Source: a virus
DNA: 64,000 nt
Reading direction: 5' to 3' (one strand)
Virus record (IMG/VR): IMGVR_UViG_3300024999_000048
Span: 32,001-96,000 of that record
Both the position numbers and the translations under genes were made by a program. Shown here piece by piece: positions 21,584 to 40,582 of this stretch (positions are counted from its first letter, which is position 1; the number at the start of each line of letters is the position of its first letter). The notes under the pieces were generated by a model that searched no databases, was not told the DNA's origin, and saw only the letters and a program-made list of their open reading frames with translations.

Positions 21584-21600
21584 GGAGGTAAATATAAAAT

Positions 21601-22110: not shown

Positions 22111-22152
22111 CAAACAAATATTTTAAAGGATATTTAAGGAGGAAGATAAATT

Positions 22153-22935
22153 ATGAGTAAAGATTCATTAGGCGACCGTATGAAGGGTTACGAAAATGTT
22201 GAGCGTAAATATTTAACTAAGAGACTCCCTTGTTTGCTTAGGATTGATGGTAAGGCGTTCCACTCATTTACTAAAGGATTTCAAAAACCATTCGACAAGG
22301 TATTGATGAAAACTATGTGGGATACTGCAAAATATCTTTGTGAAAATGTTATGGGATGTAAGATTGCTTATACTCAAAGTGATGAAATTACTTTACTACT
22401 TACCGATTATGATTCTCTTACAACTCAAGCATGGTTTGATAAAAACATTCAGAAAATGGTCTCTGTTTCTGCAAGCATGGCAACATTAGCCTTTAATAAG
22501 TCATTTTTTCAAAATTTAGATATATTTATAGACGAATATGAAGACACAGAAGAAAACACAAAATTAGCTAATAAATATTTGTCAAGAATCAATACAGCAA
22601 TGTTTGATAGTCGAGCTTTTAGTATCCCAAAAGAAGAAGTTTGTAATGCTTTCGTATGGAGACAACAAGACGCTACTAGAAATTCTATTGAGATGGTAGG
22701 TAGATATCATTTTGGAGATAAGAGATTATTCAAAGTTAATAATAATCAAATTCAAGAAATGTTGTTTCAAGAAAAGGAAATTAATTTTAATGATTTGCCA
22801 ACTTATCAAAAACGTGGAGTGTGTATTATAAAAGAGCAATATGATAAAGATGGAACTATGCGTACTAGATGGGTAATTGATGAGGATATTCCTATTTTTA
22901 CACAGGATAGAGATTATATTGAGAAGTATTTGTAA
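22153..22935 (+). CDS. thg1: tRNA(His) guanylyltransferase / Thg1-like 3'-5' polymerase
   Basis: RMKGYE, RIDGKAFHSFT, YTQSDEI, FDSRAF, WRQQDATRNSI. Confidence 0.92.
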   Translation: MSKDSLGDRMKGYENVERKYLTKRLPCLLRIDGKAFHSFTKGFQKPFDKVLMKTMWDTAKYLCENVMGCKIAYTQSDEITLLLTDYDSLTTQAWFDKNIQKMVSVSASMATLAFNKSFFQNLDIFIDEYEDTEENTKLANKYLSRINTAMFDSRAFSIPKEEVCNAFVWRQQDATRNSIEMVGRYHFGDKRLFKVNNNQIQEMLFQEKEINFNDLPTYQKRGVCIIKEQYDKDGTMRTRWVIDEDIPIFTQDRDYIEKYL

Positions 22936-23615
22936 AAGGAGATAATAAATAATGAATATTTATATTGGTATATATGACGAAAGTAATATAGAATTTCATT
23001 GTATAAAAATTCCAGCTATTGATTATTCAGTAGCATATAAAAAATTTATTAAATATCTAAAAAATAATATTAATAGTATATTGATTGAGGACAATATTTA
23101 CATAATAGAATCATGGTTACTAAAAAGCATTTAAAATATTGTTTTCGAGGTATTTAGAGAGGAGATAAAGTAATGAAAGATAGACAATATATTGATCAAC
23201 TTTTCACCACAGATGGGTTTGAAAATGTATTAAAAGCAATAGATGCAATGCATCCAATTGTAAAAGAAATTCAAGTATTTAAACAAGGGTATGATGTTAT
23301 TATGAAGAATATTGTGTCTATCAAGATAAAGGATGAACACGCTGAACATCTTAAATGTCAGGGTTATTTCTCAGATTTTAATGGTATTGAAATTTTAGTA
23401 GTAGAGGAAAGGGATATGGAAATTAATCAAGGTAAAATTATTTATAGTGATGGAAGTAGCAAAATAATTGATATTTATAAACCTTAATGTACACAAGGAG
23501 AGGATATAATTGGCAAAATATAGTAAAAAGTCCACAATACAAGGACACAAATTACGTTAAAATGTGGGTTTTAACGGATGTAATAAATAAAATAAAAGAG
23601 AGGGCGTAATAAATA

Positions 23616-24920
23616 ATGAGTTATAATGGATACATAACTAAAATTAAAAATATGAGAAAACATTCTAATGCGGATAGACTTCAAGTAGGAGAGTGCTTTG
23701 GTAATTTTGTGATAGTTGGTCTAGATACAAAAGAAGGAGAGTTGGGTTGTTATTTTCCAACAGATGGTAGATTAGGAGTTGAATATTGTCAAGAAAATAA
23801 ATTACTTAGAGAAAGAGATGCTAACGGTAATCAAACAGGTGGATACATGGATGTTGAAAAACGTCAAGTAACTACAATTAATCTTAGGAAAGAAAAATCA
23901 GATGGTTTATTTATGCCATTGAAAAGTCTTGATAAATTTTGTAATATTACTGATCTTAAAGAGGGAGATACAATTACAACTCTTAATGGAGTATTGATTT
24001 GTGAAAAGTATATTCCTAAAGGTAAGAAAAGAAATAATAATCCTACGATACAAGGAAAGAAAAATAAGAAAGTAGAAAAAGATACTTTCCCATTCTTTGC
24101 TGAACATGTTGATACTTCACAGCTTGCTTATAATACGCAACAATTTAGAGAAGGTGATTTGTGTTATATCACTCTAAAAATTCACGGTACATCACAACGC
24201 ACTTCAAATGCAATCAAGGATCAGAAAAAGATTCTTCCATATTGGATACATAAGATTTTGTCGTTTACAAAAATCAAACCTAAATCCAAAAGAACTTGGG
24301 ACTATGTAACAGGTACTAGAAGAGTTATATTAAAAGATTATAATGGTGGATTCTATGGTGACAATGATTTTAGAAAACAATGGCATGATTATTTTGTAGG
24401 CAAATTACATAAAGGAGAATCAATTTATTATGAAGTCGTAGGATATACCAATGGAAATACTACAGTAATGCCAGAATGTAGCAATGCTAAAACAAAAGAT
24501 AAGAAGTTTATTAAAGAATATGGCGAAACTACTAGATTTACATATGGTTGTGGAACAGGACAAAATGATATTTATGTTTATCGTATGACAATGACAAATG
24601 AAGATGGGTTTGTAGTGGAAATGCCTTGGCATCTTGTTAAATTACGCTGTGAACAAATGGGTATTAAATATTGTCCAGAATTTGATAAGTTTGTGTTTAC
24701 AACAAAAGAAGATTTAATGGAGAGAGTTAATAAATATGTTGATGGGGCAGATCCTATTGGTAAGACGCATATTAAAGAGGGCATTGTTGTAAGAATTGAT
24801 AATAAGGAAAAGTTTTCAGCTTATAAACACAAGAGTTTTCATTTTAAAGTATTGGAAGGAATTATTAAATCTGATGATGTTTTAGATATTGAGGAGGAAA
24901 ATAGTGAATACGCTTCATGA
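23616..24920 (+). CDS. RNA ligase (DRB0094/Rnl2-like)
   Basis: N-term HSNADRL and LRKEKSDGL; motif I KIHGTS; YYEVVG; EGIVVR; terminal YKHKS. Confidence 0.8.
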   Translation: MSYNGYITKIKNMRKHSNADRLQVGECFGNFVIVGLDTKEGELGCYFPTDGRLGVEYCQENKLLRERDANGNQTGGYMDVEKRQVTTINLRKEKSDGLFMPLKSLDKFCNITDLKEGDTITTLNGVLICEKYIPKGKKRNNNPTIQGKKNKKVEKDTFPFFAEHVDTSQLAYNTQQFREGDLCYITLKIHGTSQRTSNAIKDQKKILPYWIHKILSFTKIKPKSKRTWDYVTGTRRVILKDYNGGFYGDNDFRKQWHDYFVGKLHKGESIYYEVVGYTNGNTTVMPECSNAKTKDKKFIKEYGETTRFTYGCGTGQNDIYVYRMTMTNEDGFVVEMPWHLVKLRCEQMGIKYCPEFDKFVFTTKEDLMERVNKYVDGADPIGKTHIKEGIVVRIDNKEKFSAYKHKSFHFKVLEGIIKSDDVLDIEEENSEYAS

Positions 24921-25536
24921 ATTAATCAATAATCCTGAAGTATTAAATATCTATCAATATGGCAGTAGGGTATATAGTTGCTTCACAAATGAATCAGATT
25001 ATGATTATGTAATTGTCGTTACGGACGACTATAAAGAATTTGTAGATAATATAGAATTAGGTGACAATCATTTTAATTTTTATAAGCTATCACAATGGAA
25101 AGATATGATTATTAGGAACACAATTGAAACTCTTGAATGTCTATTTGTAGATGAGAAATTTATTATCAAGGAGTCTGTGAAATTTGATATTATAATCAAT
25201 CAAGTTGAGTTAAGAAAATCAATATCTAAAGTATGTTCTAACTCCTATGACAAATGTAGAAAGAAGTTAATAATTGAGAAAGATTTTGCTCCTTATATTG
25301 CTAAGAAAAGTCTTTGGCATTGTATCAGAATATTATTATTTGGCATTCAATGTGCTAAGTATGGAAAGATTGTGGATTATTCTGAAGCAAATAAATATTA
25401 TAATGATATTGTGCTAAATGAAAGCAGTGAATGGGAATATTATAAATCTAATTGGCATGTGTTCTGTAATAATTTGAGAACTGAATTCAGAAAGTATTCA
25501 GAGAAAGAGTGGATCAAGTGGAAAGAAACAAATTAA
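24904..25536 (+). CDS. Pol-beta superfamily nucleotidyltransferase
   Basis: YGSRVY...SDYDYVIV (GS..D.D); GTG start at 24904 after GAGGAGG. Confidence 0.75.
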   Translation: MNTLHELINNPEVLNIYQYGSRVYSCFTNESDYDYVIVVTDDYKEFVDNIELGDNHFNFYKLSQWKDMIIRNTIETLECLFVDEKFIIKESVKFDIIINQVELRKSISKVCSNSYDKCRKKLIIEKDFAPYIAKKSLWHCIRILLFGIQCAKYGKIVDYSEANKYYNDIVLNESSEWEYYKSNWHVFCNNLRTEFRKYSEKEWIKWKETN

Positions 25537-26441
25537 TCATGATGATTGGAATTGTGGCGAGTGGGAAATCATTTTATGCTCAAGAATTAGCACAAAAAGA
25601 AAATGCGGTTATACATTCTTCTGACCAATTAAGAATTGAGTTGTTTGGTGATGTTAATTTTCAGGATAAGAATGGAGAATTATTTGTAGAGTTACACAGA
25701 AGGATTAAAAGTGATTTAAATAAAGGTAAAAATGTACTGTATGACGCTACCAATCTTAATTATAAGAAGCGTAAAGCGTTTCTTGAAGAATTAAAAAAGA
25801 TTGATTGCGTTAAAGAATGTTACTTAGTGGCTACCCCTTATGAGAAATGCTTAGAACAAAACAGACAAAGAGAAAGAAAAGTTCCTGAATTTGTTTTGGA
25901 TAGGATGTATAAGAGTATATTTATACCACAGTTTTATGAAGGGTGGTCGGATATACATATTATATGGAATACAAAGGGCTATAATTTTGATACTAATGAA
26001 TTATTTAATGGTGAAAATGGATTGAATAAAATTGACCAACACAATCCATTTCACACTTTAACTATTGGAAAACATTGTTTAAAATGCTTTCAGATTTGTG
26101 AAGAATTACTTGATGATTTTGAATTAAATATGGCAGCTATGTACCATGACATTGGAAAGAGATATACTAAAGCATTTAAAAACTCTAAGGGTGAAGATAC
26201 TGACACTGCACATTACTATAATCATAATAATGTTTCTGCATATGATAGTCTATTCATTTTTAATAAGCAAGATTTTGATATTGAAACAATTTTACTGATT
26301 ACAAATTACATACAATGGCATATGCAACCTTTCTTCAATAAAGATTCGGAAAAAGCAAAAAATAAGTTTATTAATTTAGTTGGTCAAGAATTTTATGATA
26401 AATTGTTAATTTTGCATGAAGCTGATGTATTGGCAAAATAA
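25509..26441 (+). CDS. polynucleotide kinase (AAA_33 P-loop) fused to HD domain
   Basis: GIVASGKS, SSDQLR, YDATNL, R.RKVP; C-term HTLTIGKH, YHDIGK, HMQP, HEAD. Confidence 0.85.
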   Translation: MDQVERNKLIMMIGIVASGKSFYAQELAQKENAVIHSSDQLRIELFGDVNFQDKNGELFVELHRRIKSDLNKGKNVLYDATNLNYKKRKAFLEELKKIDCVKECYLVATPYEKCLEQNRQRERKVPEFVLDRMYKSIFIPQFYEGWSDIHIIWNTKGYNFDTNELFNGENGLNKIDQHNPFHTLTIGKHCLKCFQICEELLDDFELNMAAMYHDIGKRYTKAFKNSKGEDTDTAHYYNHNNVSAYDSLFIFNKQDFDIETILLITNYIQWHMQPFFNKDSEKAKNKFINLVGQEFYDKLLILHEADVLAK

Positions 26442-26546
26442 TCCAACCTTATAACCCTACTGTAACAAGGGTTTCAAAATCAACGATTCCCATTTTGTCC
26501 CATAAAAATCAAATTTTATGCTTTTTGGAAATTATAAAATAAATAC

Positions 26547-26576
26547 TTGACTTATTATAACTTAATATGATATACT
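26547..26576 (+). promoter_or_regulatory. sigmaA-type promoter with AT-rich UP element
   Basis: TTATAAAATAAATAC-TTGACT-18bp-TATACT. Confidence 0.65.
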
Positions 26577-26608
26577 AAATTGAGAAATAATGTTTAAGGA
26601 GATGTAAA

Positions 26609-27508
26609 ATGGTTAAAAATATTAAATGCTTAGAGAGTTCAGAAGGTAATGTTTGGAAATACATATTTGACTTTGGAGATGCTATTGCCGAGGCCGTACT
26701 TTATCGCTATGGAACATTCGAAGAACGAACTGTAATATGTTGCTCTGTGCAGTCTGGATGCCCTGTAGGATGCCAATTCTGCGGTACTGGTAAGCATTTT
26801 GTTCGTAATCTTACTGTAGATGAGATTGTTGGTCAAATTGAATATATACTTAAGGACAAGAATATAGAATCTATTAATACCACTTGTGAAAAGTTTCAAA
26901 TTATGTTTATGAGTATGGGCGAACCAATGCTTAACTGGTATAATGTGAAATATAGTATTCTCCAAATGTATCATGGTTTAAGATGGGGAAATGCTCAATA
27001 TTTGATTTCTACCATTGGAGTAAATGATGATGAGGTTTTTGGTGGATTAATTGAATTATCTAAAGCTGTTCCAAACGTAGGTCTACAATTCTCTATTCAT
27101 CGTGGTTATGAAACAATGAGAGATATCTTAATTCCATTTAAAAATAAAATGAGTTTGAGAAAATTACGTGATGCTGGTATCATATGGTCTGAAGCTACAG
27201 GTAGAAAGGTATTTCTTAATTATTGTGTAACTGATGAGAATTCTTCATTAGATGAACTTGGAAGATTAAAAGATTTATTTACTTCACATAGATTCAATTT
27301 TACATTTAGCACAGTTTGTACAGCAGATGAAACTATGAAACAAGTTGGAATTAGAGATTTAAGTAAGATAGAAAAGGTGGCAGAATCATTTAGTATTGAT
27401 GGATATAATACAAGAGTATTTAATCCTGCAGGTCAAGATGACATTGGAGGTGGTTGTGGTCAATTGTGGTATGTTCAAGAATGGTTAAGTAAATATGAAA
27501 ATAAATAA
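26609..27508 (+). CDS. RlmN/Cfr-like radical SAM RNA methyltransferase
   Basis: CSVQSGCPVGCQFCGTG (CxxxCxxC), FMSMGEP, GQDDIGGGCGQL. Confidence 0.88.
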   Translation: MVKNIKCLESSEGNVWKYIFDFGDAIAEAVLYRYGTFEERTVICCSVQSGCPVGCQFCGTGKHFVRNLTVDEIVGQIEYILKDKNIESINTTCEKFQIMFMSMGEPMLNWYNVKYSILQMYHGLRWGNAQYLISTIGVNDDEVFGGLIELSKAVPNVGLQFSIHRGYETMRDILIPFKNKMSLRKLRDAGIIWSEATGRKVFLNYCVTDENSSLDELGRLKDLFTSHRFNFTFSTVCTADETMKQVGIRDLSKIEKVAESFSIDGYNTRVFNPAGQDDIGGGCGQLWYVQEWLSKYENK

Positions 27509-27526
27509 ATTATAGAAGGTGATAAA

Positions 27527-28357
27527 TTGATTTGGTTAAACGACACGTTATTAGATTTCACCACATTCCCAAATGGGGAAACAAAAATCAATGAACAACA
27601 AATTAATAAAATTTTAGGAGGTGTTAATAATTCATTAACTACATTTAAATATCAATCAGATGCAGATTTGATTAAGTTATTATTCCTAAAGAAATACCTA
27701 GATCAATTAAAAGTAAAATCTGATCTACATATTATGTACATGCCATATAGTAGAATGGATAGATCGGAAGGAGGTTCAGCATTCACACTAAAATATATTG
27801 CAGAATTTATTAATGGTTTAGGATTTGATTATATTCACGTATTAGAACCACATTCTAATGTAACTCCTGCATTATTAAATAATTGTAAAACTAGATTCTT
27901 GTCTGTTGATATATTTTATGATATTAAAGACAAAATTAATTTCAATAATGATACTGATTATGTGTATTATCCTGATGCCGGAGCAGAGAAACGTTATAGT
28001 AAAATGATTGCTGTTCCTAATCAATTAGTAGGATTTAAACACAGAGATTTTAAAACAGGTAAAATTACTAGTCTTCAAGTTTTTGGAGATGTTAAGAAAA
28101 AAGGATTTAAAGTGGTTATGGTAGATGACTTGAGTAGTTACGGAGGTACATTTATCTTAGGAGCAAAACAACTTAGAGAGCTTGGTGCTTCAGAGATTTA
28201 TCTTGTTGTTGGACATTGTGAAGAATCAATTTATAAAGGTGATATATTTAAGACAGATTTAATTGATAAAGTTTTCACTACTGATACTATTATGAATGAA
28301 TCTTTAAATAATAAAATTGAAGTATATAAAATTATGAATAAGAAAGAGGCAAAATAA
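27527..28357 (+). CDS. ribose-phosphate pyrophosphokinase-like protein (Adps-like ADPR-PP synthetase)
   Basis: FPNGE, YMPYSRMDR, EPHS, YPDAGAEKRY, VDDLSSYGGTF; adjacent to a Nampt-like gene. Confidence 0.85.
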   Translation: MIWLNDTLLDFTTFPNGETKINEQQINKILGGVNNSLTTFKYQSDADLIKLLFLKKYLDQLKVKSDLHIMYMPYSRMDRSEGGSAFTLKYIAEFINGLGFDYIHVLEPHSNVTPALLNNCKTRFLSVDIFYDIKDKINFNNDTDYVYYPDAGAEKRYSKMIAVPNQLVGFKHRDFKTGKITSLQVFGDVKKKGFKVVMVDDLSSYGGTFILGAKQLRELGASEIYLVVGHCEESIYKGDIFKTDLIDKVFTTDTIMNESLNNKIEVYKIMNKKEAK

Positions 28358-28358
28358 T

Positions 28359-30068
28359 ATGAAAACAAATCCATTGTTAATGACAGATGCTTATAAAATT
28401 AGCCACCTCATTATGAGTGAAAAAGGTACAGAGAAAATCTATTCTACATTTACACCAAGACATTCAAGAATTGAAGGAATTAATGAAGTAGTATTCTTTG
28501 GATTACAAGGATTTATCAAGGATTATTTAATTGAAAATTTCAATGAAAATTTCTTCAATATGGATAAAGGAACTGTAATTGCAGATTATAAAAGAATCAT
28601 TAAGAATTCATTAGGAGATAATTGTGCTGATACTTCTCATATCGAAGCATTACATGATCTAGGATATTTACCTATTAAAATTAAAGCGGTAAAAGAAGGT
28701 ACCCTTATTCCAATGAAAGTTCCTGTATTTACAATTGAAAATACTCAAAAAGAATTCTATTGGTTGACAAATTTTTTAGAAACATTGATTTCTGCAAATA
28801 TGTGGAAAGTAATTACTGCTACAACAATTGTAAAGAAATATAGAGATATTTGTGAAAAATGGGCTGAGAAAACATGTGATAGTAAAGATCATATTCAATG
28901 GCAATGTCATAATTTTAGTTATAGAGGAATGAGTGGTCATGAAGATGCAGTTACTACAGGTGCAGGACATTTGCTGTATTTTACTGGAACAGATACTTTG
29001 CCAAGTATTCAGTATTTAGAACAATATTATGGCGCGAATGTAGAGAATGACCTTATTGGTGCAAGCGTTCTCGCCACGGAACATAGTATTCAATGTGGAT
29101 ATCAAGACGATCTGAGATATTTTAAGAGAATGATTACAGAAGTGGCTCCTAGCGGTATTGTTAGTATAGTTAGTGATGGATACGATTATTTCAATGTTCT
29201 TGGTAATATTTTACCTACACTAAAAGATGATATTATGAGTAGAGATGGTAAGACCGTCATTCGTCCTGACAGTGGCTCTCCAGTGAAAATTATTTGTGGG
29301 AATGTGATTGTTGAAGATTTAACCAATGAAGAATATTGTGATAATCTGGAAGATTGCAAGGAAATTATGTTGGAGAGAATGGTTGACGATATAAGAAATT
29401 ATACACCTCATGGAGAACATGGTATTTCTAGGCAAGATGCTATTTTTAAATTTCAAGATAAGCATTATGAAATTGTTATTGAAATTGATTGGAATAGACA
29501 TGACAAACAATATTATTATATTGATGGTGCTAATGTTTACATTTGTAAGGAAGCAGAGTTAACCTTAGAGCAAAAAGGTTCTGTAGAATCTCTGTGGGAT
29601 ACCTTTGGAGGTACTATTAATAGTAAAGGATATAAGGTATTAGATAGTCATATCGGAATTATTTATGGCGATAGCATTAGTCCAGAAATTGCTGAAGAAA
29701 CTTTCAAACAATTAGAAGCAAAAGGATTCTCTTCTGAAAACATCGTATATGGAGTTGGAAGTTATTCTTTGGGTTATCACACCAGAGATACATTTTCGAT
29801 GGCTTTAAAGGCCACTTACACGGTTATTGATGGAAAAGAGAAATTCATCTTTAAAGATCCTAAAACTGATATTGGTGGAATTAAAAAATCTCAAAGAGGT
29901 ATGGTTTCTGTGTTACAAGATCCTGATGATGGAGAAATATTTCTTATAGACAGATTAAATGCAGAGAAAAGAGATAATTATAATGGTCGTGATTTACTTG
30001 AAGATGTATTTATTGATGGGAAATTAGTAAGAGATGAAAGTTTAGCGGAAATTAGAGCAAGAGTTTAA
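28359..30068 (+). CDS. nicotinamide phosphoribosyltransferase-like protein (Namat-like)
   Basis: TDAYKISH, FFGLQ, HNFSYRG, FTGTDT, ATEHS, SIVSDGYD, IRPDSG, IYGDSI, KDPKTD. Confidence 0.9.
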   Translation: MKTNPLLMTDAYKISHLIMSEKGTEKIYSTFTPRHSRIEGINEVVFFGLQGFIKDYLIENFNENFFNMDKGTVIADYKRIIKNSLGDNCADTSHIEALHDLGYLPIKIKAVKEGTLIPMKVPVFTIENTQKEFYWLTNFLETLISANMWKVITATTIVKKYRDICEKWAEKTCDSKDHIQWQCHNFSYRGMSGHEDAVTTGAGHLLYFTGTDTLPSIQYLEQYYGANVENDLIGASVLATEHSIQCGYQDDLRYFKRMITEVAPSGIVSIVSDGYDYFNVLGNILPTLKDDIMSRDGKTVIRPDSGSPVKIICGNVIVEDLTNEEYCDNLEDCKEIMLERMVDDIRNYTPHGEHGISRQDAIFKFQDKHYEIVIEIDWNRHDKQYYYIDGANVYICKEAELTLEQKGSVESLWDTFGGTINSKGYKVLDSHIGIIYGDSISPEIAEETFKQLEAKGFSSENIVYGVGSYSLGYHTRDTFSMALKATYTVIDGKEKFIFKDPKTDIGGIKKSQRGMVSVLQDPDDGEIFLIDRLNAEKRDNYNGRDLLEDVFIDGKLVRDESLAEIRARV

Positions 30069-30083
30069 AATAAGAGGATAAGA

Positions 30084-30126
30084 TTGGATTCTGAAAGTAT
30101 ATTAATATTTTGCTTTCAGAATCTAA
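30084..30126 (+). terminator. long hairpin after the Nampt-like gene
   Basis: TTGGATTCTGAAAGTA...TGCTTTCAGAATCTAA inverted repeat. Confidence 0.55.
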
Positions 30127-31186
30127 AATCCAAATATTAAGGAGGCCAATACCTATGGAAGAACTTGATATCTTTAGTGTTAGCATGAAGAAAATAGAAG
30201 GAACTAAAAATTATTAATCAAGGGGATTTAAATTTTATGAATTGGAATATTAATTTTTGTTCGAAGAAAGAGGATTTTGATTATTGTCAAAATAATTGCA
30301 ATAAAACATGTCCTACTGTATCAAATTTCTGGTATGGGCATATTATAAATCCATTAATTAATTTATGGATGACTATCCAAAACAGATTTACTAAATGTGA
30401 TAAATTACCTACTAAATGTTCGTTTTTGTTTTGTAAAAAGTATTGTTCTTTACATAGGAGATGCAAGTGAAAATACGAAAGAAGGTAAACAATATGTTTT
30501 ACGTCAAAAGCAAGAAACCTGAATCATGTTGTGATGAAGTATCAGGAACTCGTACAAAGAAAATAGTTTATGATATTCAATATAAGCGTGGTTATCCATT
30601 CTTTACTTTTTATGAGAACGGACAATGGATTACTAGAAGTGCAAAATATTATGAACCAGTAATTCAATCATAGAGTTATTTAGAAGGAATTCATAAAGGA
30701 GAATTGATTTCATGAAAGATATTTTTAATTTTGAATTAGATGAAAAGAATAAAAAGCGTTTTTCTCATTGTGATTTTGTATTCAAAGCAGAGAAGGAAAA
30801 TGATGGAAAATATAAAGTTACTTGGATTGAAGATGGAGAATTAGAGCAGTCATCTATAGAAGAAAAGAGAATGAAACATGGATTAGATGAAGGTTATTGG
30901 GTTATAAAACAAGACTAATTAAAAGAAAGGATAATAAATATGAAAGAAATACCAAATTGTAGAATATGTCAATTAAAATGTTGTGGATGCGAAAGTTATG
31001 ACACTTGCTTAATGCGTAAAGGTGAGAATGGTCATAAAATAGAAGATTGCACATTAATGGCTAGTAAATATTATTTGCTTACTGAGTATTTAAGTTATGA
31101 GAAAGGTTTAAATATGAGATTATGTAATTACGATGTGGTGTGTAAAAGTTTAGTGGAAGCATGGAATTAGGAAGGAGAAATGTAAT

Positions 31187-31519
31187 ATGGAAGATGAAAT
31201 AGTGGAGTATTTTATTGTTAATAGTGAATTAAATATGTCTGCTGGTAAGGTGTGCGCTCAAATAGGCCATGTGGCGACGATAATTGCAGTAGATTATTGT
31301 GATCAAGATATCTTTTGGAAGTGGTATCAAAAAGATCAGAAGAAAATAATTTTACGTGGTGAACAAAAGGATTTAGAGAAATTAATTGATGCAGGATTCT
31401 ATTATATTAGAGATAATGGGTGCAATGAAGTAGAAAAAGGGTCATTGACCTGTGTAGGACTTGAACCTATGTTAAAAAGTGAAGCACAGAAATTTGTGAA
31501 GAGATTACAATTGTATTAG
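31187..31519 (+). CDS. peptidyl-tRNA hydrolase, Pth2 type
   Basis: MSAGKVCAQIGH, QKKIIL, IRDNGCNEV, SLTCVGLEP. Confidence 0.85.
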   Translation: MEDEIVEYFIVNSELNMSAGKVCAQIGHVATIIAVDYCDQDIFWKWYQKDQKKIILRGEQKDLEKLIDAGFYYIRDNGCNEVEKGSLTCVGLEPMLKSEAQKFVKRLQLY

Positions 31520-32380: not shown

Positions 32381-32797
32381 GTGATAATTATTATGCAAGT
32401 AGTAAATAAAGTTCAACAATCGCAACAGTTGGTTAGAGGTGGGATATACCTAGTTGATCTAGGTGAAGGAAGAGGATCTTTGCAAGGAAAGGTTCGTCCA
32501 TGTGTGTTAATTTCGAACCGAATGGCTAATATCCACAGTTCAGTTTTGCATATATGTCCAGTGAGTTCAATTACTACTAAGTCAAAATTACCGACGCATA
32601 TTGGATTGAGCAAAAATAATTCTGGATTATTAAGGGATAGTATTGTACTCTGCGAACAAACACAACTGGTTACGAAGGATTCAATAGGTCGCATGGTTGG
32701 CCTTTGTTTGGAGGAAGATTTAATGAGAATTAATAGAGGAATTGCTATACAGTTCGGATTATCTGAAGTTAGAAATAATGTTGCTTATGCAAATTAA
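32381..32797 (+). CDS. mazF: PemK/MazF-family endoribonuclease (no adjacent MazE)
   Basis: RGGIYLVDL, GSLQGKVRPCVLISN, KLPTHI, DSIVLCEQ. Confidence 0.9.
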   Translation: MIIIMQVVNKVQQSQQLVRGGIYLVDLGEGRGSLQGKVRPCVLISNRMANIHSSVLHICPVSSITTKSKLPTHIGLSKNNSGLLRDSIVLCEQTQLVTKDSIGRMVGLCLEEDLMRINRGIAIQFGLSEVRNNVAYAN

Positions 32798-32816: not shown

Positions 32817-33719
32817 TTGAAAGAGTTTAAAGATTTAATTGGTCAAACGTTTAATAGATGGACTGTAATTGGCATATCTGATAAAACAAATAAACATTAT
32901 GATAGATATTGGTTATGTCAATGCAGTTGTGAAAATAAAACAATAAGAGAAGTTAGTGAACTTAGTTTGATAAAAGAGAGAAGTAAGAGTTGTGGATGTT
33001 ATTCAAGTGAAGTAACGACTAAAATGAATAAAGATAGATCAATCAGAGATAAATATCCACATTACAAAAGAATATATAGTGTTTACGATGGAATGAGAAA
33101 GAGATGCTATAATGAAAACAACGACAATTATAAATACTATGGTGCGAAAGGAGTTATTATATGTAAAGAGTGGTTAAGTGATTTTATGAAGTTTTATCAT
33201 TGGTCAATAGAGAATGGATATAGTCCTGAATTGACTATAGACAGAATAGAAACACACGGTATATATGAACCAGATAATTGCAGATGGGCGACTCAAGAAG
33301 TTCAAGATTATAATAAAAGAAATACAGTATATCTTGAAATTGATGGAGAATCGAAAACTGTATTAGATTGGGAGAAGATATCAGGATTATCTTATTCTGT
33401 TCTTTGGCAAAGATATAAAATATTTGGTTTTAGAACAAAAGAAGAAATGTTTAAACCTGTTAGACAAGTTACTAAGATAATACATAATGGCATAGAAAAA
33501 ACATTAAGACAATTACATGAAGAGACAGGGTTAGGAATAGCTATTTTAGAGTGGAGAAATAAACAAGGATTAAAAGATGATGAATTAATAAAACCAGCAA
33601 ATAGATGGGCAGGACATGTAAAATCTACAGAAAAAAGAATTAGAAAGAAAAAGACAAAAAATGTAATAGATATACAAAACACAATAGATATAAGAGAAGA
33701 GGTGTTAACCATTGGTTGA
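32817..33719 (+). CDS. HNH-type homing endonuclease
   Basis: WLCQCSC...SKSCGC; MRKRCY, YYGAKGVIICKEW, LTIDRI, YEPDNCRWAT. Confidence 0.85.
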   Translation: MKEFKDLIGQTFNRWTVIGISDKTNKHYDRYWLCQCSCENKTIREVSELSLIKERSKSCGCYSSEVTTKMNKDRSIRDKYPHYKRIYSVYDGMRKRCYNENNDNYKYYGAKGVIICKEWLSDFMKFYHWSIENGYSPELTIDRIETHGIYEPDNCRWATQEVQDYNKRNTVYLEIDGESKTVLDWEKISGLSYSVLWQRYKIFGFRTKEEMFKPVRQVTKIIHNGIEKTLRQLHEETGLGIAILEWRNKQGLKDDELIKPANRWAGHVKSTEKRIRKKKTKNVIDIQNTIDIREEVLTIG

Positions 33720-34332
33720 AACCCTCATAGCATCACTGCTATTCTCTAAACTTCATCTTTACATAAAACTAGGCAAACTCCAAATACACAAAGAATCATA
33801 TCTAATAAAACCAATACTAAAACAATGGAGTTTCTATCCAGTAATATTTATGTCGATATTTTATGTCTATCTACAATACACAATAATGAATCAGAATTAC
33901 TATTTTCTTCAATATCAACATATAATAAAAAATGCTATATTAGGATCATATATGGTTCTAGGACTTGATGTTCTATTAAGGTATGAGAAGTATAAAGAGT
34001 ATATTATTGCATGTTGTAGTCTCTTGTGTGGCTTTACATTGAATTATATTGTAATGCATTTTAATCAGGGGAAGATGCCGATTTTTCCCGATATCTCTTA
34101 TTCAACTGGTTACACACAATATAATGTGATTATGAATGCTTCTAAGTTTAGCGATTTTCATGTTTTAGGTGATCACACAACAAGATTGATATTTTTATCA
34201 GATATATTCGATATAGGAGGAAGTATTTGGTCTCCTGGAGATGTGCTTTGTAGATTATTTGCTTTTATAATCGTCTACTTTTCGGTTAAAGAAATTAGCA
34301 AAATACATATGAATAAAATAGAGAATCAATAA
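33712..34332 (+). CDS. DUF5317-family membrane protein
   Basis: GFTLNYIVMHFNQGKMPI and LIFLSDIF...SPGDVL match the family's G..N....NGG.MP / L.D / S.GD motifs. Confidence 0.7.
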   Translation: MVETLIASLLFSKLHLYIKLGKLQIHKESYLIKPILKQWSFYPVIFMSIFYVYLQYTIMNQNYYFLQYQHIIKNAILGSYMVLGLDVLLRYEKYKEYIIACCSLLCGFTLNYIVMHFNQGKMPIFPDISYSTGYTQYNVIMNASKFSDFHVLGDHTTRLIFLSDIFDIGGSIWSPGDVLCRLFAFIIVYFSVKEISKIHMNKIENQ

Positions 34333-34389: not shown

Positions 34390-35229
34390 ATGGATAAGAA
34401 AGAGGTAATACATATGCAAGGTGTAACAAATGCTTTATTAAACACAATTTTAGTTAGTATACCGGAGGAAGCTTTTATTGTGATTATGACATTGGTTTTT
34501 CTAAAACGATTTGATATGTTGGACATACGAATGTGGAAACACAGTTTAAAATGGGTTATGGTTCCAACAATTCCTGTGGCAATGGTAATAAATGTGTTTA
34601 GATACATAATAATCATACCAAAACCAACAATGTCTTTAATTGCTTTTATATTAATGAATGTACTAATCTTATATGTGGTTATAAAGAACAGTTATAGTAT
34701 TGATAAAAAATTAATTTTTAAAACAATAATTTTTACAGTTTTGAGTTTTATTATTGTTGGATTAATTGAATTGTTATATTATCCTCTTTCCCTTTCATTG
34801 CTACATAAGGAAATGAGTTTTTTTGATAATAAAATTATATACAATATAATAATATCACTTCCTGCAAGAATTATTGAAATATGTATTTTGACGTTTGTAG
34901 TAATAAAAAAGAACAATACAGTACAGGTAAATTTATTTAATACAATAGTCAAAAATAGATTTTTTACAAATAGTTTCTTAACTATAATTATATCAATAGT
35001 GTCATTGATTATTTATATAGCAAAGTTAATAATTGTTGATAATATCATTATTCATATTAGTATTGTTGATCAGTTGATTTTAACTTCGATTGTAATATCT
35101 GCACCAATAATATTGATCACATGGTTCTTAATGTTTATCAACTATTTGTTAACAAAAGAAAAACAAATACAACAGACTTATGAGAGTCTTGTTATGCAAG
35201 ATGACATAATGCTTGATGTAGAAGATTAA
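34390..35229 (+). CDS. polytopic membrane protein, AgrC-sensor-like but without kinase domains (paralog 1)
   Basis: about 7 hydrophobic segments; SIPEEAFI, LPARI, VNLF shared with 37159..38010; likely start ATG 34414; no H-box or HATPase motifs. Confidence 0.6.
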   Translation: MDKKEVIHMQGVTNALLNTILVSIPEEAFIVIMTLVFLKRFDMLDIRMWKHSLKWVMVPTIPVAMVINVFRYIIIIPKPTMSLIAFILMNVLILYVVIKNSYSIDKKLIFKTIIFTVLSFIIVGLIELLYYPLSLSLLHKEMSFFDNKIIYNIIISLPARIIEICILTFVVIKKNNTVQVNLFNTIVKNRFFTNSFLTIIISIVSLIIYIAKLIIVDNIIIHISIVDQLILTSIVISAPIILITWFLMFINYLLTKEKQIQQTYESLVMQDDIMLDVED

Positions 35230-35249
35230 CGTGAAAGGAGGTGAAATAA

Positions 35250-35366
35250 ATGAAAAAATACGCTATTATCGCTGGAGTAGTTGCCTTGTCTGCTACGATG
35301 TTCTCAAATGTTTTTGCATCATGGTTATTTTCACATCAACCAAAAACTCCTAATTGTATGAAATAA
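35250..35366 (+). CDS. agrD: AgrD-type cyclic autoinducing peptide precursor, 38 aa (absent from ORF track)
   Basis: MKKYAIIAGVVALSATMFSNVFASWLFSHQPKTPNCMK; perfect RBS AAAGGAGGTG; hydrophobic leader + S-WLFS + HQPKTP, like clostridial AgrD C-xxxx-HQP..P; agrB 1 kb downstream. Confidence 0.88.
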   Translation: MKKYAIIAGVVALSATMFSNVFASWLFSHQPKTPNCMK

Positions 35367-35378
35367 TCTCACTCTACA

Positions 35379-35406
35379 TATAGGGAGGGTTTCAGCCTTC
35401 CCTATA
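35379..35406 (+). terminator. hairpin downstream of agrD
   Basis: TATAGGGAGGG-tttcag-CCTTCCCTATA. Confidence 0.65.
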
Positions 35407-35445
35407 ATCATAATATAAATTAATAAGAAATCGCAAATAATTGTG

Positions 35446-35475
35446 TTGACATATTCATACATAGTAGGATATAAT
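35446..35475 (+). promoter_or_regulatory. consensus sigmaA promoter for mazF2-agrB
   Basis: TTGACA-18bp-TATAAT. Confidence 0.7.
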
Positions 35476-35516
35476 TATATTATCACGTAAGGCAAATTAT
35501 AAATATCTTATTAAAT

Positions 35517-36320
35517 ATGAAAAGGATGTGCATTACTATGTTCAACAAATTATTTGCTAAATCAACTACCTCTGAGGAAAACGTCAAAAAGGATTTTAAG
35601 AAATTAGCTAATTATGTACTCCATGCAAAAGGCCAAAATAGAACGATCAATGGATTTGCAGCAGATATGAAAACCGATTCTGAATACTTAACTCTTATTG
35701 CAACCGCTAAAATAAATTCATATCCACAAATTGATTTTCTTAAAATAATTGCAAACCATTCTCAAGGAAGGGTGTCTTTGCAAGAATTAACGATGGCATG
35801 TGGGTATTCAAACTACACTAATAATGACATGGAACAGATAAAAAGTATTGAAGTTAGACGAGGGTGGTTCTGCTACGTAAACCTAGGTGATGCTATGGAC
35901 TCAGAATATGGAGGAAATCGAATGTGTTTAATTGTGCAAAACGACGTAGGAAACCATTTCTCATCGACCTCAATTATTTTACCTCTCACCAGCAGACGAA
36001 AAACTCAACTCCCCACGCACGTTCAAGTCGGAATAAAAAATTGCGGCCTACCACAAGAATCAATTGTTAGTTGTGAGCAAATTCGTTGTGTAAGTAAACG
36101 GAGATTAATTCAAAGGGGAATAGTTCAGAAGGTATCTGAATGTCCTCCAGATGTAATGTTAAAGGTAGAGGTGGCTTTACTCAAGGCGCAAGGAGTTATA
36201 CATCTTAAAATGAATGAACAGGAAGCTATTCAACACTTAATGAACATGAATACCCAGAAAACATTTCAGTATCAAAATAATTATGCAAGTGCAGGACAGC
36301 AGGTAGCCTATGCACGATAA
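35517..36320 (+). CDS. mazF: MazF/PemK-family RNase with an N-terminal XRE/HTH-like domain
   Basis: C-term RRGWFCYVNL, DSEYGGNRMCLIVQNDVGN, LPLTS, LPTHV, CEQIRCVSKRRL; N-term RTINGFAADMKTDSEYLTLI...ELTMACGY helical XRE-like; likely start ATG 35538. Confidence 0.8.
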   Translation: MKRMCITMFNKLFAKSTTSEENVKKDFKKLANYVLHAKGQNRTINGFAADMKTDSEYLTLIATAKINSYPQIDFLKIIANHSQGRVSLQELTMACGYSNYTNNDMEQIKSIEVRRGWFCYVNLGDAMDSEYGGNRMCLIVQNDVGNHFSSTSIILPLTSRRKTQLPTHVQVGIKNCGLPQESIVSCEQIRCVSKRRLIQRGIVQKVSECPPDVMLKVEVALLKAQGVIHLKMNEQEAIQHLMNMNTQKTFQYQNNYASAGQQVAYAR

Positions 36321-36344
36321 AAGAAAGGAAGATTAAATAATTTA

Positions 36345-36986
36345 ATGAGTTTTATTGAATTTGTATCAAATCGTTCAGCTAAATGGTTAGCTAAAAATTA
36401 CCCGAACAATGGCAAATATCCAACTGTAGAGGATCAAATAGAAGTTTTCACATATGGTTTTATGGTTATATGGGGTGCTATATTAAAGGGATTCATAATG
36501 GTATCACTAGCATCTATTTTCGGAGTAATACTTCCTGCTATGATTATCACATTAACCTTCAGTAGTTTAAGAATCATAGCAGGAGGATATCATTTCGGTG
36601 AATATACAAAATGCATCACGTTTTCTACCATTCAATTCATAGGATCAGCATTAATAGTCAAGCACACACTTCAATATTGGTCACACCTAGACATACAAGG
36701 ATTATTTCTATTTTGTTGGGCAATGGGATTATATATAAATTTTCGATATATTCCCAAAGACACACCAAACAAACTGATTACAGAACCATTAGAAAGAGCA
36801 AAGTTTAAAAAATGGTCATTATTATACTTAATTTCATGGGTAACAATGATGACCATTTTATTATTCTTCAATCTAAAAATAATTGTTATTGCAAGTTGTT
36901 TCGGATTATTATTAGAACTTTTCTCGATAAGCAAGGTTGGTTATGGTATATATTCTCTTGTAGATGGTATTAGTATACATAAATAA
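36345..36986 (+). CDS. agrB: accessory gene regulator B (peptide-cyclising membrane endopeptidase)
   Basis: YGF, LRIIAGGYH...C (catalytic His/Cys), PKDTPNK; multiple TM helices. Confidence 0.92.
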   Translation: MSFIEFVSNRSAKWLAKNYPNNGKYPTVEDQIEVFTYGFMVIWGAILKGFIMVSLASIFGVILPAMIITLTFSSLRIIAGGYHFGEYTKCITFSTIQFIGSALIVKHTLQYWSHLDIQGLFLFCWAMGLYINFRYIPKDTPNKLITEPLERAKFKKWSLLYLISWVTMMTILLFFNLKIIVIASCFGLLLELFSISKVGYGIYSLVDGISIHK

Positions 36987-37158
36987 AATCTCACAAACCT
37001 CACAACATCCCATCTTATCCCATAATTGCAATACTTTATTCAATTTAATTTCCCAACATTTATGATATATTTACAGCAATAAGTAATAGCACATAATAAT
37101 TACACCCTTACTCAAAACAAACCAAAAACCTAATAATAGAGAAGGAAGGAAACCCTAT

Positions 37159-38010
37159 ATGCAATCTATTACTAATGCTGTATTAAACCTACTATTCGTT
37201 TCCATCCCAGAAGAAGCATTTATTGCAATCATAACTCTAACATTCCTAAATAAACTTGACAACTTATTCGACATCTATATGTGGAAGAAAAATCTAAAAT
37301 GGCTTATGATAGCAACATTGCCCGCATCAATATTAGTTTGTGTTTTGCGATTTATGTTATTAGTTCCCCAAATTATTGTAATAAAATCGGTAATGGCACT
37401 CATGATCACATCAATGATATACATAGTAGTAAAAAACTCTGACAAAATAACTATTCTTTTAATATTTAAAACAGCAATGTTCACATTAGCAGGTTTTGTA
37501 ATTACAGGAATATTGGAATATGCATATTGTCCAATAATATTTTCTCTATTACATAAACCTCAAGAATTCTTTAATAATGTTTTCCTCTATAATTTTCTAT
37601 TAGGATTACCCGCTAGAGTCCTCTATACTTGTGTTGTTGTTTTTATTATAATGAAGAAAAATGGCAAAGTTAAAGTTAATTTATTTGATATTTTAATTAA
37701 AAGCAAATTATTTATTGGCAGTTTTGTTGTTACAATATTGTCTGTAGTTTCATTAATTGTTTATATTGCTAAATTGGTAAAAAATGAAAGTATTTTATTT
37801 AGTTTCCAATTCATTGACCAATTTATCATTATTGTAATAATCACATCTGTTCCAACTATTTTAATTACTTTGTTATTAGTGGTTATTAATTATTTAATAT
37901 CTGGTGAGAGGAAGAATCAGCAAATGTATGAGAATATTGGCAATGAGGATGGTAAGAACAACGGCAACATTAATAATGAGGAAGATATTTATGACAACTA
38001 TTATGAATAG
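37159..38010 (+). CDS. polytopic membrane protein, AgrC-sensor-like but without kinase domains (paralog 2)
   Basis: MQSITNAVLNLLFVSIPEEAFI aligns with paralog 1 throughout; short acidic/Asn-rich C-tail, no kinase motifs. Confidence 0.6.
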   Translation: MQSITNAVLNLLFVSIPEEAFIAIITLTFLNKLDNLFDIYMWKKNLKWLMIATLPASILVCVLRFMLLVPQIIVIKSVMALMITSMIYIVVKNSDKITILLIFKTAMFTLAGFVITGILEYAYCPIIFSLLHKPQEFFNNVFLYNFLLGLPARVLYTCVVVFIIMKKNGKVKVNLFDILIKSKLFIGSFVVTILSVVSLIVYIAKLVKNESILFSFQFIDQFIIIVIITSVPTILITLLLVVINYLISGERKNQQMYENIGNEDGKNNGNINNEEDIYDNYYE

Positions 38011-38061: not shown

Positions 38062-38091
38062 TTGACAAATCTCAATGAACAATGTTATAAT
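38062..38091 (+). promoter_or_regulatory. consensus sigmaA promoter for the yopQ/yopR-like pair
   Basis: TTGACA-18bp-TG-N-TATAAT; a second candidate TTGCAT-17bp-TATAAT starts at 38129. Confidence 0.7.
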
Positions 38092-38192: not shown

Positions 38193-39566
38193 ATGTCAAA
38201 GGAGGAAAATAATATGAAAAAAGATCGTCAAGTTCTTGAGGATGTTCTTGATTTAGTAATTGAGGACTATTCTAATGACAACAAGGTTATGGAACATGTT
38301 ATAGTTAAATTATTAGAAAGAGGTATCCCAAGAGGACTTACAACTGGTCTGTTTACCAAAGCTACGCCATTGGTTTATGCTTCAGAAACCGAATTGTGTT
38401 TATTTACAAAGTACCTCTTTGGATATACTCACAGACCAGAAATAAATCCAGAAGAATTTTTTACAGAAATAGACTTATCTTTAGCAGAATCGTATCAAAA
38501 ACTAGAAAAGGACAAAGTTAAATATATTTTGTTGCATAATGTTGATCAACTTACTCCAACTCAATTTTTATGTACAAAAGAGACTTATCAAAATAATAGT
38601 GTTTATATGGGGAATGGATTATTAACTTATAATCCAAATACTCAAAGACAACTTCTGAAACGAAGAAGTGGAGACAAAATCATTGAATCAATTAATGTTG
38701 GTGGGAAAAAAGTTACAGAAATTACTTCATCAATGTTAGACAATACATTTTGCCCAAATGCAATCATATGGAACATTAGAAAGATAAACGGACAAGAGAA
38801 GTTTAAATACGATGCAAAATCTAGAACCTTATTAATTGAACCTGACAATATCACAACTTTTGTGGACATAATCGATGGTGCAAATCGTACTTGTGGGATG
38901 ATTAAGGTTGTTGAACTTAAACCTGAAATTGATAGAATTACTTCGATATATATTCATCATGTCACGGAAGAACGAGCGAATCAAATTATAAAACAAGAAA
39001 GTTTAGCTGCTCCTATTCAGACAGAATGGGTTGATTTTAAAGATACCGCAAATCCAAATATGGAAGTTGCTAAAGGTATTAATGATCGTCAAAGAGAAAA
39101 TGAAATGTTTAATCGAGTAGGGTTAGATTCCAAGGAATTGAAATTAGAAAACAAACTGGTTATGTTTGATACATTATCAAAAGCTATTGAATTTGTTTAT
39201 GATCTTAAAGAAAAACCTGTTATTAGACAAAGAGAAGTAATTGATGATTTGGTAGAATTATTTAATAATGTCATTGGACTTAATTTTTCAAAATTTAATA
39301 CAGAATTATCAGATGCCAGAGAAAAAACTTATATGGCACATGACAACATGTTTATTGGGTATATTATATTGGGAGATTTGTTAAGGCAGAAATATGAAAC
39401 AGAATGGAAATCTGAGTTGGTGAAGGTATTAAAGTCTTTAGATTTTGATAAGTCTAATAAAATTTGGAAGAAAATTGGTATTGAAAACAATGTAAATTTA
39501 TCTACTTTTAAAAAGATTTCAGAGTATTTTAAAGATATTGTCTCTGAAAAGGAGGTTGCTGTATAA
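38193..39566 (+). CDS. YopQ-like protein with DndB/ParB-like (DGQHR-type) domain
   Basis: YNPNTQR, IIDGANRT (DGxxR variant); size and position directly before a YopR-like gene as in SPbeta. Confidence 0.65.
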   Translation: MSKEENNMKKDRQVLEDVLDLVIEDYSNDNKVMEHVIVKLLERGIPRGLTTGLFTKATPLVYASETELCLFTKYLFGYTHRPEINPEEFFTEIDLSLAESYQKLEKDKVKYILLHNVDQLTPTQFLCTKETYQNNSVYMGNGLLTYNPNTQRQLLKRRSGDKIIESINVGGKKVTEITSSMLDNTFCPNAIIWNIRKINGQEKFKYDAKSRTLLIEPDNITTFVDIIDGANRTCGMIKVVELKPEIDRITSIYIHHVTEERANQIIKQESLAAPIQTEWVDFKDTANPNMEVAKGINDRQRENEMFNRVGLDSKELKLENKLVMFDTLSKAIEFVYDLKEKPVIRQREVIDDLVELFNNVIGLNFSKFNTELSDAREKTYMAHDNMFIGYIILGDLLRQKYETEWKSELVKVLKSLDFDKSNKIWKKIGIENNVNLSTFKKISEYFKDIVSEKEVAV

Positions 39567-40582
39567 TGTCGTTCACTATCGAAAGAACTTTATTCAATGA
39601 AGATCAAAAGAATCGTTTTCTTAATGAAAAATATCCAAATGAAAGCACTCGAACGACTAATACTTCTATCTTAAGAAGTGTAGGTAGATTTGAAAATGAT
39701 AAAAACAAAGATTTGTGTAAATTTAGTTATGAAGAAGTAAAAGAATTATTGATTGGTATGAAAAAGAAATCTGTGAAATCATTGGGTGTTGCTTATACAA
39801 TTATTATGCAGTATCTTGATTGGTGTTTATTCAACAATTACAGTTCAATGAATGTTTTGAAGTTGGTTGATAAAAAAGAAGACCTTCCAAAATATGTTCA
39901 TCAAGTAGCTCAGAAAAATTCTTATATCTCTAGAGATCAAATGTATTCTTACTGTGACCGGCTCTATAATTATGCCGACAAAGCAATGATTGCATTATTA
40001 TTTGAAAATGTTAGAGGAAGAACAGAAAAAGGTCATTCGTATGAAGAAATGAGAAATCTAAAAATTAATGATATATTCCCTGAAACAAATACAATTGCCA
40101 TAACTAGGGATGTAGATGATAATGTAAAGAATGACGCAGAGACTCCAAACCCAAGAACAATTAGTGTAGACCCAAGAACTATGGATATTCTCGTTGCAGC
40201 AGCCATAGAAGACACCTATCATCGTAGTAATGGTGAAGCGGAAGGTAGATTCGCTATATCTCAAACCAAAGACACTCCCTACCTTCTAAGAACGCTGGAC
40301 AGGAAGAGTAGCGCTGGAGATGATAGAATTACGGTAGGAAATATTAGTGCAAGATTTAAAAATTTCCGTCAATATACTGGCATCAAATTTCTAAATCCAA
40401 CCCTAGTATTTCAAAGTGGAATGTTTGACCGATGTTTTAAAGAGGAAGCAGATATTGGCGAGTTGAGTTCAGATAATTTTCGATATATACTCAGTGATTT
40501 AGAATTGGATGAAAGGGGTTGGCAAGGATTAAAAGAAACTTATGAAAGTTACAAACAAATACAGTCTACAGTCCCTAAATAA
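39566..40582 (+). CDS. YopR/MrpR-like tyrosine-recombinase-fold repressor
   Basis: LFNEDQKNRFL...FENDKNKDLCKFS N-terminus; ALLFENVRG...EMRNLKINDI; LNPTLVFQSGM lacks the canonical HxxR catalytic motif. Confidence 0.75.
   Translation: MSFTIERTLFNEDQKNRFLNEKYPNESTRTTNTSILRSVGRFENDKNKDLCKFSYEEVKELLIGMKKKSVKSLGVAYTIIMQYLDWCLFNNYSSMNVLKLVDKKEDLPKYVHQVAQKNSYISRDQMYSYCDRLYNYADKAMIALLFENVRGRTEKGHSYEEMRNLKINDIFPETNTIAITRDVDDNVKNDAETPNPRTISVDPRTMDILVAAAIEDTYHRSNGEAEGRFAISQTKDTPYLLRTLDRKSSAGDDRITVGNISARFKNFRQYTGIKFLNPTLVFQSGMFDRCFKEEADIGELSSDNFRYILSDLELDERGWQGLKETYESYKQIQSTVPK

Follow-up and report, generated by a model that had tools for sequence, protein, structure and literature searches.

Two related genes in a stretch of viral DNA encode seven-helix membrane proteins that appear to be the sensor half of an AgrC-type histidine kinase without its catalytic half. 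The stretch, hereafter the window, comprises 64,000 nucleotides (positions 32,001 to 96,000 of IMG/VR record IMGVR_UViG_3300024999_000048) and comes from a viral record of 121 kb whose completeness is put at 72%; its GC content is about 29%, and all of its genes lie on the + strand. The two genes, copy 1 and copy 2, flank agrD (35250-35366) and agrB (36345-36986), both of which lie between them, as a first-pass annotation of the window had described. Judged from sequence comparisons, their products belong to a stand-alone protein family not described before, and we conclude from profile alignments that this family descends from AgrC-type sensors whose catalytic half was lost long ago. The best reading of the family, for which we see about an even chance, is that of an AgrC-type peptide receptor which has no kinase, would contact a partner through its cytoplasmic tail and would give an output independent of phosphorylation. 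The two open reading frames (ORFs) are as follows.

34390..35229, + strand: copy 1 ('pos1', parA), kinase-less seven-transmembrane (7TM) AgrC-like sensor family; 45% identity to copy 2
37159..38010, + strand: copy 2 ('pos2', parB), kinase-less 7TM AgrC-like sensor family, 283 amino acids (aa) (BLASTP, AlphaFold2)

Both frames exist on the + strand as annotated, and BLASTP aligns them end to end with 118 identities in 265 positions (45%), 70% positives, one gap and an E-value of 2e-80. With a similarity this far beyond chance they are clearly paralogues, and every motif that had been quoted for the pair (SIPEEAFI, LKW, LPAR, VNLF, YIAKL and INYL..E..QQ.YE) is found in the alignment. Translation of copy 1 probably starts at the ATG at 34414 (MQGVTNA...) to give 271 rather than 279 aa, because AAGAGG lies 8 nucleotides upstream of this codon and the N-termini of relatives agree with it. 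The absence of a kinase is borne out by Pfam, NCBIfam, PHROG and PADLOC, which find a HisKA/HATPase domain in neither copy; there are in fact zero matches to either protein among the models of these collections (Pfam at E <= 0.1). The annotated layout of several transmembrane (TM) segments followed by a short acidic tail also stands. The AlphaFold2 model of copy 2 shows seven long helices with a mean pLDDT of 65 (modest confidence), and both copies end 20-35 residues after TM7 in an acidic tail without His. An N-out, C-in topology is predicted from the helix positions and from Lys-rich loops at residues 30-45, 93-99 and 167-184. Among 100 family members P17 and E18 are nearly invariant, the Pro standing immediately before the first Glu of an intramembrane pair. 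Both Glu residues had been taken as conserved; this is nearly always true of the first, and the second is conserved in the phage clade alone. Neither the 100-member alignment nor that of close members contains an invariant His or Cys.

Structure searches with the 7TM model, which is of modest confidence, returned no PDB match at E <= 0.001 in Foldseek and generic helical matches alone in VIA-align (best Z 7.5). The family profile found nothing below E 1 among PDB sequences, in which AgrC is covered by its cytoplasmic module alone, and a search of the ESM Atlas gave unnamed clusters alone.

Relatives of the two proteins are numerous and uniformly short. In a word-indexed search of proteins of 155-496 aa, 34 of 34 close clusters were 202-287 aa long and none was a kinase. 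An exhaustive profile search of 1.84 billion representatives yielded 177 relatives at E <= 0.001, 116 of them at E <= 1e-10, and the 150 of the 177 matches that were listed span 47-326 aa. A search limited to proteins of 504-2000 aa detected no longer fused form, which is weak evidence, and 29 distant members gave no match in Pfam (E <= 0.1) and thus no GHKL ATP-binding domain. Among 399 sampled genomes of Clostridia, the class of one bacterial member, 21 carry the family at E <= 1e-5 (two further genomes were not scored); the open frames measure 230-343 aa, and one weak match is a real kinase of 419 aa. Intact reading frames occur at 14 phage loci and at all 19 bacterial loci fetched. No published description of a kinase-less AgrC-like family was found in the literature searched at title and abstract level. 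Recent truncation of kinases, which was considered as the origin of the two ORFs, is ruled out by the uniformly short relatives (150 listed of 177 at no more than 326 aa). The first-pass annotation had allowed that homologues might normally be full-length kinases. Within the range of HMMER this is not so; it does hold for remote relatives, and the family itself is old, conserved and under purifying selection.

The weak match in Clostridia was a real kinase, and the relation to AgrC was therefore tested directly, a comparison that the annotation had proposed. From five member-bearing genomes and a protein search, 37 HATPase_c_5 kinases were collected, and the 17 touched by the family hidden Markov model (HMM) were aligned; among PDB entries this alignment comes closest to the kinase module of S. 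aureus AgrC (6e52, E 4e-31). In hhalign, 100 family members match the 17 AgrC-type kinases at 97.8% with an E-value of 1.3e-12 over 260 columns, which indicates remote homology. The match is collinear, running from TM1 of both to the stretch that leads up to and surrounds the kinase H-box, where the linker and DHp are located. The controls remain low, with 0.3% for reversed kinases, 0.8% for the reversed family, 0.3% for AgrB (15 sequences) and 0.5% for DUF5317. Taken separately, two subsets of the kinases give 72.9% (E 3e-5) and 96.9% (E 1.4e-10), with reversed controls at 0.1-0.2%, and AgrB is a direct neighbour of 4 of the 10 kinases that make up the better subset. Bacterial members retain a cytoplasmic tail of 50-70 residues that resembles a DHp helix pair without a conserved His (e.g. 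..QNIDYLCALIDEKQYGELKRVL..), and phage members are without even this DHp-like tail. The family thus shares with AgrC/HPK10 kinases, both S. aureus AgrC and those of clostridial agr loci, a homologous N-terminal polytopic membrane domain and a gene position beside agrD/agrB. In contrast to AgrC, its members have neither the GHKL ATPase domain nor the phospho-accepting His, and their genes precede agrD whereas that of AgrC follows it. A further difference is that no LytTR regulator is found in the phage record and one stands beside only 1 of 19 bacterial members (L066).

Linkage to agrD is a property of the family as a whole. An AgrD-like ORF follows directly 3' on the same strand in 15 of 19 bacterial loci, with stop and start codons that often overlap, and in L061 it lies about 600 bp 3' of the family member, which brings the total to 16 of 19; none was seen in the remaining three (L053, L054 and L055) by motif scan and inspection by eye. 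The AgrD of the window was called by TIGR04223 and the others by the motif [CS]x4..QP(K/R)xP, a scan that also gave two likely false matches elsewhere in the loci. Neighbours were assigned by a Pfam scan that took 118 of 203 selected ORFs around the 19 bacterial members. Regulators of the HTH_3 (Xre) type adjoin the member at L049, L057, L059, L061, L063, L064 and L068, and four of them are related to one another also outside the first helix-turn-helix (HTH) domain, as a separate family (E-values of 1e-7 to 3e-17, small database). MazF is next to a bacterial member in 0 of 19 loci. The MazF link is hence specific to phages, and bacterial members travel with agrD and often with Xre-type HTH genes. 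AgrB is encoded somewhere in 9 of 10 genomes checked, including about 4 kb from the member at L064 according to the genome search. Two other arrangements recur. L060, L065 and L066 have the order STAS protein, Peptidase_C26 (Cys-His amidotransferase-like), 7TM protein and AgrD-like ORF, with no adjacent AgrB. At L051, L054 and L055 a soluble protein of 123-131 aa and of no known family is encoded directly 5' of the member on the same strand, adjoining a divergent LytR_cpsA_psr gene; an AgrD-like ORF is found in L051 alone among these three.

In the phage, the genes are ordered MazF, HNH, DUF5317, copy 1, agrD, N-domain-MazF fusion, AgrB, copy 2, DndB-like and MrpR-like recombinase. Besides the two copies, the features of this cassette are as follows.

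32381..32797, + strand: stand-alone MazF/PemK-type endoribonuclease homologue, 138 aa (PF02452, E 1.8e-20), ending in ..NNVAYAN
32817-33719, + strand: HNH endonuclease, between MazF and DUF5317
33712..34332, + strand: DUF5317 membrane protein, 206 aa (PF17248, E 6.3e-19)
35250..35366, + strand: agrD, 38-aa autoinducing-peptide precursor, directly after copy 1 (TIGR04223, 22.8 bits, cut-off 19)
35446..35475, + strand: promoter-like site TTGACA-18-TATAAT (12/12) ahead of the MazF fusion; a consensus match alone
35517..36320, + strand: MazF fusion (PF02452, E 2.3e-21, residues 115-222)
36345..36986, + strand: AgrB, AgrD-processing membrane peptidase homologue, 213 aa (PF04647, E 7.2e-34)
38193-40582, + strand: DndB-like gene (PF14072) and MrpR-like tyrosine recombinase gene (PF22822, PF22823) by Pfam

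Thirteen related viral loci were compared with the window; L008-L011 are identical in this region, which leaves 10 distinct loci, and with the window there are 14 loci, 11 of them distinct. MazF, DUF5317 (directly 5' of copy 1), copy 1, an AgrD-like ORF in the same place, the MazF fusion and AgrB, which follows the MazF fusion or precedes DUF5317, form a core common to all 13. The AgrD-like ORF thus follows copy 1 in all 14 phage loci. A full copy 2 is present in 11 of the 13, its place being taken by an HNH gene in L016 and the gene being truncated in L017. Searches of 50,697 GenBank phage records by tblastn with copy 2 and AgrB, and by megablast with the cassette, gave no match. The phage proteins fall into a single clade of the maximum-likelihood tree (100/98). 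Within it the pos2 copies make up a monophyletic group on short branches (100/100), and the pos1 copies, encoded beside agrD, are long-branched and paraphyletic, the divergent pos1 lineage following the AgrD type; pairwise identity averages 34% among pos1 and 59% among pos2 copies. In eight phage pairs the ratio of nonsynonymous to synonymous substitution rates (dN/dS) is 0.12-0.32 (0.16-0.32 for copy 2), which shows that purifying selection maintains both copies.

The variation is concentrated in one part of the cassette. Between the window and L005, DUF5317 is 82% identical, the MazF fusion 81% and copy 2 83%, compared with 41% for copy 1 and 62% for AgrB. AgrD is 92% identical, and two of its three changes fall within the predicted ring (SWLFS vs SMFFS). 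In the window AgrD reads ...NVFASWLFS/HQPKTPNCMK, with a predicted Ser-based ring of five residues; both ring and cleavage site are predictions from general clostridial AgrD biology. Copy 1, the AgrD ring and AgrB therefore make up a hypervariable block between conserved genes. The pattern is like that of the staphylococcal agr specificity groups, in which the sensor varies together with the AgrD ring and AgrB; in the phages copy 1 stands in the place of the AgrC sensor. At five loci the tail of copy 1 (QIQQTYxNLVMQDDxMLDVED) is better conserved than the TM body, and the type of this tail switches together with the type of the MazF fusion.

The MazF fusion consists of an N-domain (about residues 25-97), a MazF endoribonuclease (about 112-225), a C-terminal helix and a ..QQVAYAR tail. 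AlphaFold2 models the N-domain as five helices (pLDDT ~85-90), and the best Foldseek matches of the fusion are Bacillus and Staphylococcus MazF (34-36% identity, E 5e-10). Both MazF homologues of the window and their orthologues in L005-L017 have the common C-terminal end ..(N/Q)(N/Q)VAYA(N/R), which might serve for docking or mark the protein for degradation. A conserved gene for a MazE-like antitoxin lies next to neither MazF in the window or in L005-L017. The 121-kb phage record (72% complete) contains no match to HATPase_c, HATPase_c_5 or LytTR (PF04397), and hence no other phage-encoded receiver was found. PADLOC gave no match for 10 cassette proteins.

These observations can be assembled into a receptor model. 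The family protein would correspond to an AgrC-type (HPK10) histidine kinase reduced to its seven-helix membrane sensor, the catalytic half having been lost. It would bind the AgrD-derived cyclic peptide at its outer face, as AgrC does, and would pass the signal on through a protein-protein contact of its cytoplasmic tail instead of phosphorylation. The neighbouring Xre-type regulators are candidate partners in bacteria; in the phage the N-domain-MazF fusion, perhaps with the second MazF, may play this part. A cytoplasmic partner is suggested because the copy-1 tail is more strongly conserved than the membrane body and changes with the MazF-fusion type. Copy 1, given its co-variation with both the AgrD ring and AgrB, may be the receptor matched to the peptide that the phage itself encodes, and the conserved copy 2 may be a second receptor or a co-receptor.

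Several observations weigh against the receptor reading. The homology is remote, the family and the kinases being about 13% identical, and the 17 kinases had been pre-selected by contact with the family HMM; the 20 unselected ones, when pooled, give 19% over 38 columns of the DHp region. The nearly invariant intramembrane Pro-Glu of the family is not present in the kinases, and the outer loops are not singled out when conservation is calculated per topological region. As for the partners, only seven of the 19 bacterial loci have an Xre neighbour. In the N-domains of MazF fusions taken from six loci Pfam detects no HTH above noise, and the hhalign match of this domain to seven bacterial Xre neighbours is weak (26%, E 7e-4). 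Finally, the family member is encoded directly before agrD, the position that AgrB occupies in canonical agr loci, and only four of the 19 bacterial loci (L056, L057, L058 and L062) have an adjacent AgrB gene, at most 4.5 kb away; G207, a fragmented draft that holds L060 and has two 7TM-agrD pairs, gives no AgrB match. Because of this AgrB-like position and the scarcity of adjacent AgrB genes, a role in AgrD maturation fits the loci as well as a receptor role does.

As a maturation or export factor, the 7TM protein would act on the AgrD precursor or on a cyclic intermediate, replacing or helping AgrB by leader removal, chaperoning or export. The tight 3' linkage of agrD in 15 of 19 bacterial loci (and at a distance in L061), with overlapping codons, would suit such a role. 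The nearly invariant Pro-Glu could be catalytic or substrate-binding, and a processing enzyme would co-vary with the AgrD ring just as copy 1 does. Proteins of the CPBP/Rce1-like type are marked by the motifs EExxxR, FxxxH and HxxxN/D. Neither His nor Arg occurs among the invariant columns of 29 close members, and there is no PF02517 match (E <= 0.1); the family is therefore not of the Rce1/CPBP protease type to which MroQ, a membrane peptidase of autoinducing-peptide maturation, belongs (bioRxiv 10.1101/516906). Like AgrB (PF04647) and the MroQ-type proteins, the family is multi-pass, is encoded with AgrD or may act on it and has a Glu motif in a TM helix; unlike them, it has no conserved His or Cys, and it shows no sequence or profile similarity to either (for AgrB, 0.3% in hhalign and no PF04647 match). 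Moreover, the family descends from a ligand-sensing domain, and canonical AgrB is encoded in the phage cassettes and in four bacterial loci as well as elsewhere in 9 of 10 genomes. Every linked AgrD also keeps the QP(K/R)xP tail, which is described as used by AgrB (PMC3901668). On balance we consider a maturation role fairly unlikely. A non-signalling peptide binder, or a dominant-negative partner that silences or retunes a full-length AgrC kinase (that of the host, for the phage), would likewise account for a sensor domain kept while the catalytic half is lost. The DHp-like helix of bacterial members could pair with a kinase, the five member-bearing genomes have 12-24 HATPase_c_5 matches each, and the phage record is without a response regulator or kinase match. 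However, phage members have no DHp-like helix and no kinase gene is consistently adjacent, while tight co-transcription with their own agrD and co-variation with its ring suggest a productive cognate pair. Such a decoy is, in our estimate, decidedly unlikely.

In the phage, the acidic, aromatic tails might instead act as membrane-tethered antitoxins that hold the two MazF RNases in a MazE-like manner until the peptide releases or captures them. Both MazFs occur in all 13 viral loci and two full 7TM copies in 11 of them, no MazE-like gene is conserved beside either MazF, and the acidic tail of copy 1 is unusually conserved and follows the MazF-fusion type. There is also a precedent for peptide signalling that acts through MazF, the arbitrium system of phi3T (PMC10769878). 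On the other hand, none of the 19 bacterial members is beside a MazF, many relatives in the phage clade have tails of just 10-20 residues or so, and there is no sequence similarity to MazE families. A complex prediction of the copy-1 tail (residues 250-279) with two MazF fusions scored 0.00 against a mark of 0.32 and speaks neither for nor against this idea, which we regard as very unlikely. That the proteins are decayed, functionless remnants of AgrC has virtually no chance of being right. The missing kinase half would fit it, whereas the 177 relatives have uniform length and conserved motifs, the frames are intact in 14 phage and 19 of 19 bacterial loci, and dN/dS is 0.12-0.32. The pseudogene reading was rejected on the basis of uniform length and dN/dS.

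The cassette suggests phage-encoded agr-type peptide communication, and the kinase-less receptor reading sets it apart from the systems already described. Isolate examples of agr-type communication by phages found in the literature are limited to phiCDHM1, which has a different architecture. In the published account of this Clostridioides difficile myovirus, agr3 consists of agrB, agrD and a putative receiver, with no response regulator; the receiver has a kinase domain, and its authors did not identify a receptor domain (PMC3901668). The window likewise combines a phage-borne agrB and agrD with a putative receiver and no response regulator, but in reverse: here a receptor domain is found without the kinase, in two copies and with two MazF genes. 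In the Bacillus phage phi3T, arbitrium peptide communication is reported to have its output via the MazF endoribonuclease (PMC10769878). Common to both is the pairing of a phage peptide system with MazF, in the window as a putative output. The phi3T account describes a linear peptide, the cytoplasmic AimR and host MazEF, whereas the window encodes an agr-type peptide, a candidate membrane receptor and phage-encoded MazF homologues. The orphan agrBD of C. perfringens, for which VirS, encoded elsewhere, is reported as the receiver (PMC4963840, PMC7492741), is similar in that clostridial agr signal genes are not followed by agrC and agrA. It differs in that a full kinase is encoded elsewhere, while here a kinase-less sensor gene is physically coupled to agrD.

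The surroundings of the cassette deserve a brief description. A second 12/12 sigma-70-type consensus promoter lies at 38062-38091, ahead of the DndB-like gene. With perfect promoters ahead of both the MazF fusion and this gene, the sequence hints at two transcription units, one made up of DUF5317, copy 1 and agrD, the other of the MazF fusion and agrB; promoter-like sites in the region total 47 compared with 46.5 expected from shuffles. Two of five bacterial genomes checked encode DUF5317, in each case on another contig and unlinked to agr loci, and no published description of it was found in the literature searched at title and abstract level. The DndB-like and MrpR-like pair also follows the agr cassette in L005-L017, with L006 ending before the recombinase position, and occurs in two very different versions, one roughly 75% and the other roughly 25% identical to that of the window, which do not track the agr type. 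HNH genes between MazF and DUF5317 vary in size (L005 1822-3420, L008 1889-3625, L012 1893-3494). This variation, together with the replacement of copy 2 by an HNH gene in L016 (9659-10387), suggests traffic of homing endonucleases around the locus. At 20900-31519 and 49609-51576 the window carries NAD salvage genes (NAMPT and PRPP-synthetase-like) as well as genes for a Thg1-like tRNA-His guanylyltransferase, an AAA_33+HD protein, a radical SAM protein, the peptidyl-tRNA hydrolase PTH2 and an NAD-dependent DNA ligase; the RNA-repair-type genes of the phage lie a few kb 5' of the two RNase toxin genes.

In agr signalling as it is understood, the peptide acts on the AgrC kinase, which acts in turn on AgrA. 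Many clostridial agrBD loci have no receiver nearby. A sensor-only family fixed before agrD would be either a receiver of a new kind, independent of phosphorylation, or an overlooked component of the maturation or export of the peptide. In a clade of large phages its neighbours are the whole sender set, AgrB and AgrD, together with two MazF RNases, and the natural specificity variants (the window versus L005, L016 and others) provide ready-made test pairs. A bolder extension of the receptor reading, which we think distinctly improbable, is a kinase-independent branch of agr signalling in which a seven-helix receptor derived from AgrC would read a cyclic peptide and gate cytoplasmic effectors directly through its tail, namely the two phage-encoded MazF RNases in jumbo phages and Xre-type regulators in Clostridia. 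If such a branch existed, the phage could communicate with other phages, or with the host, by an agr-type system and thereby turn the cleavage of host RNA on or off.

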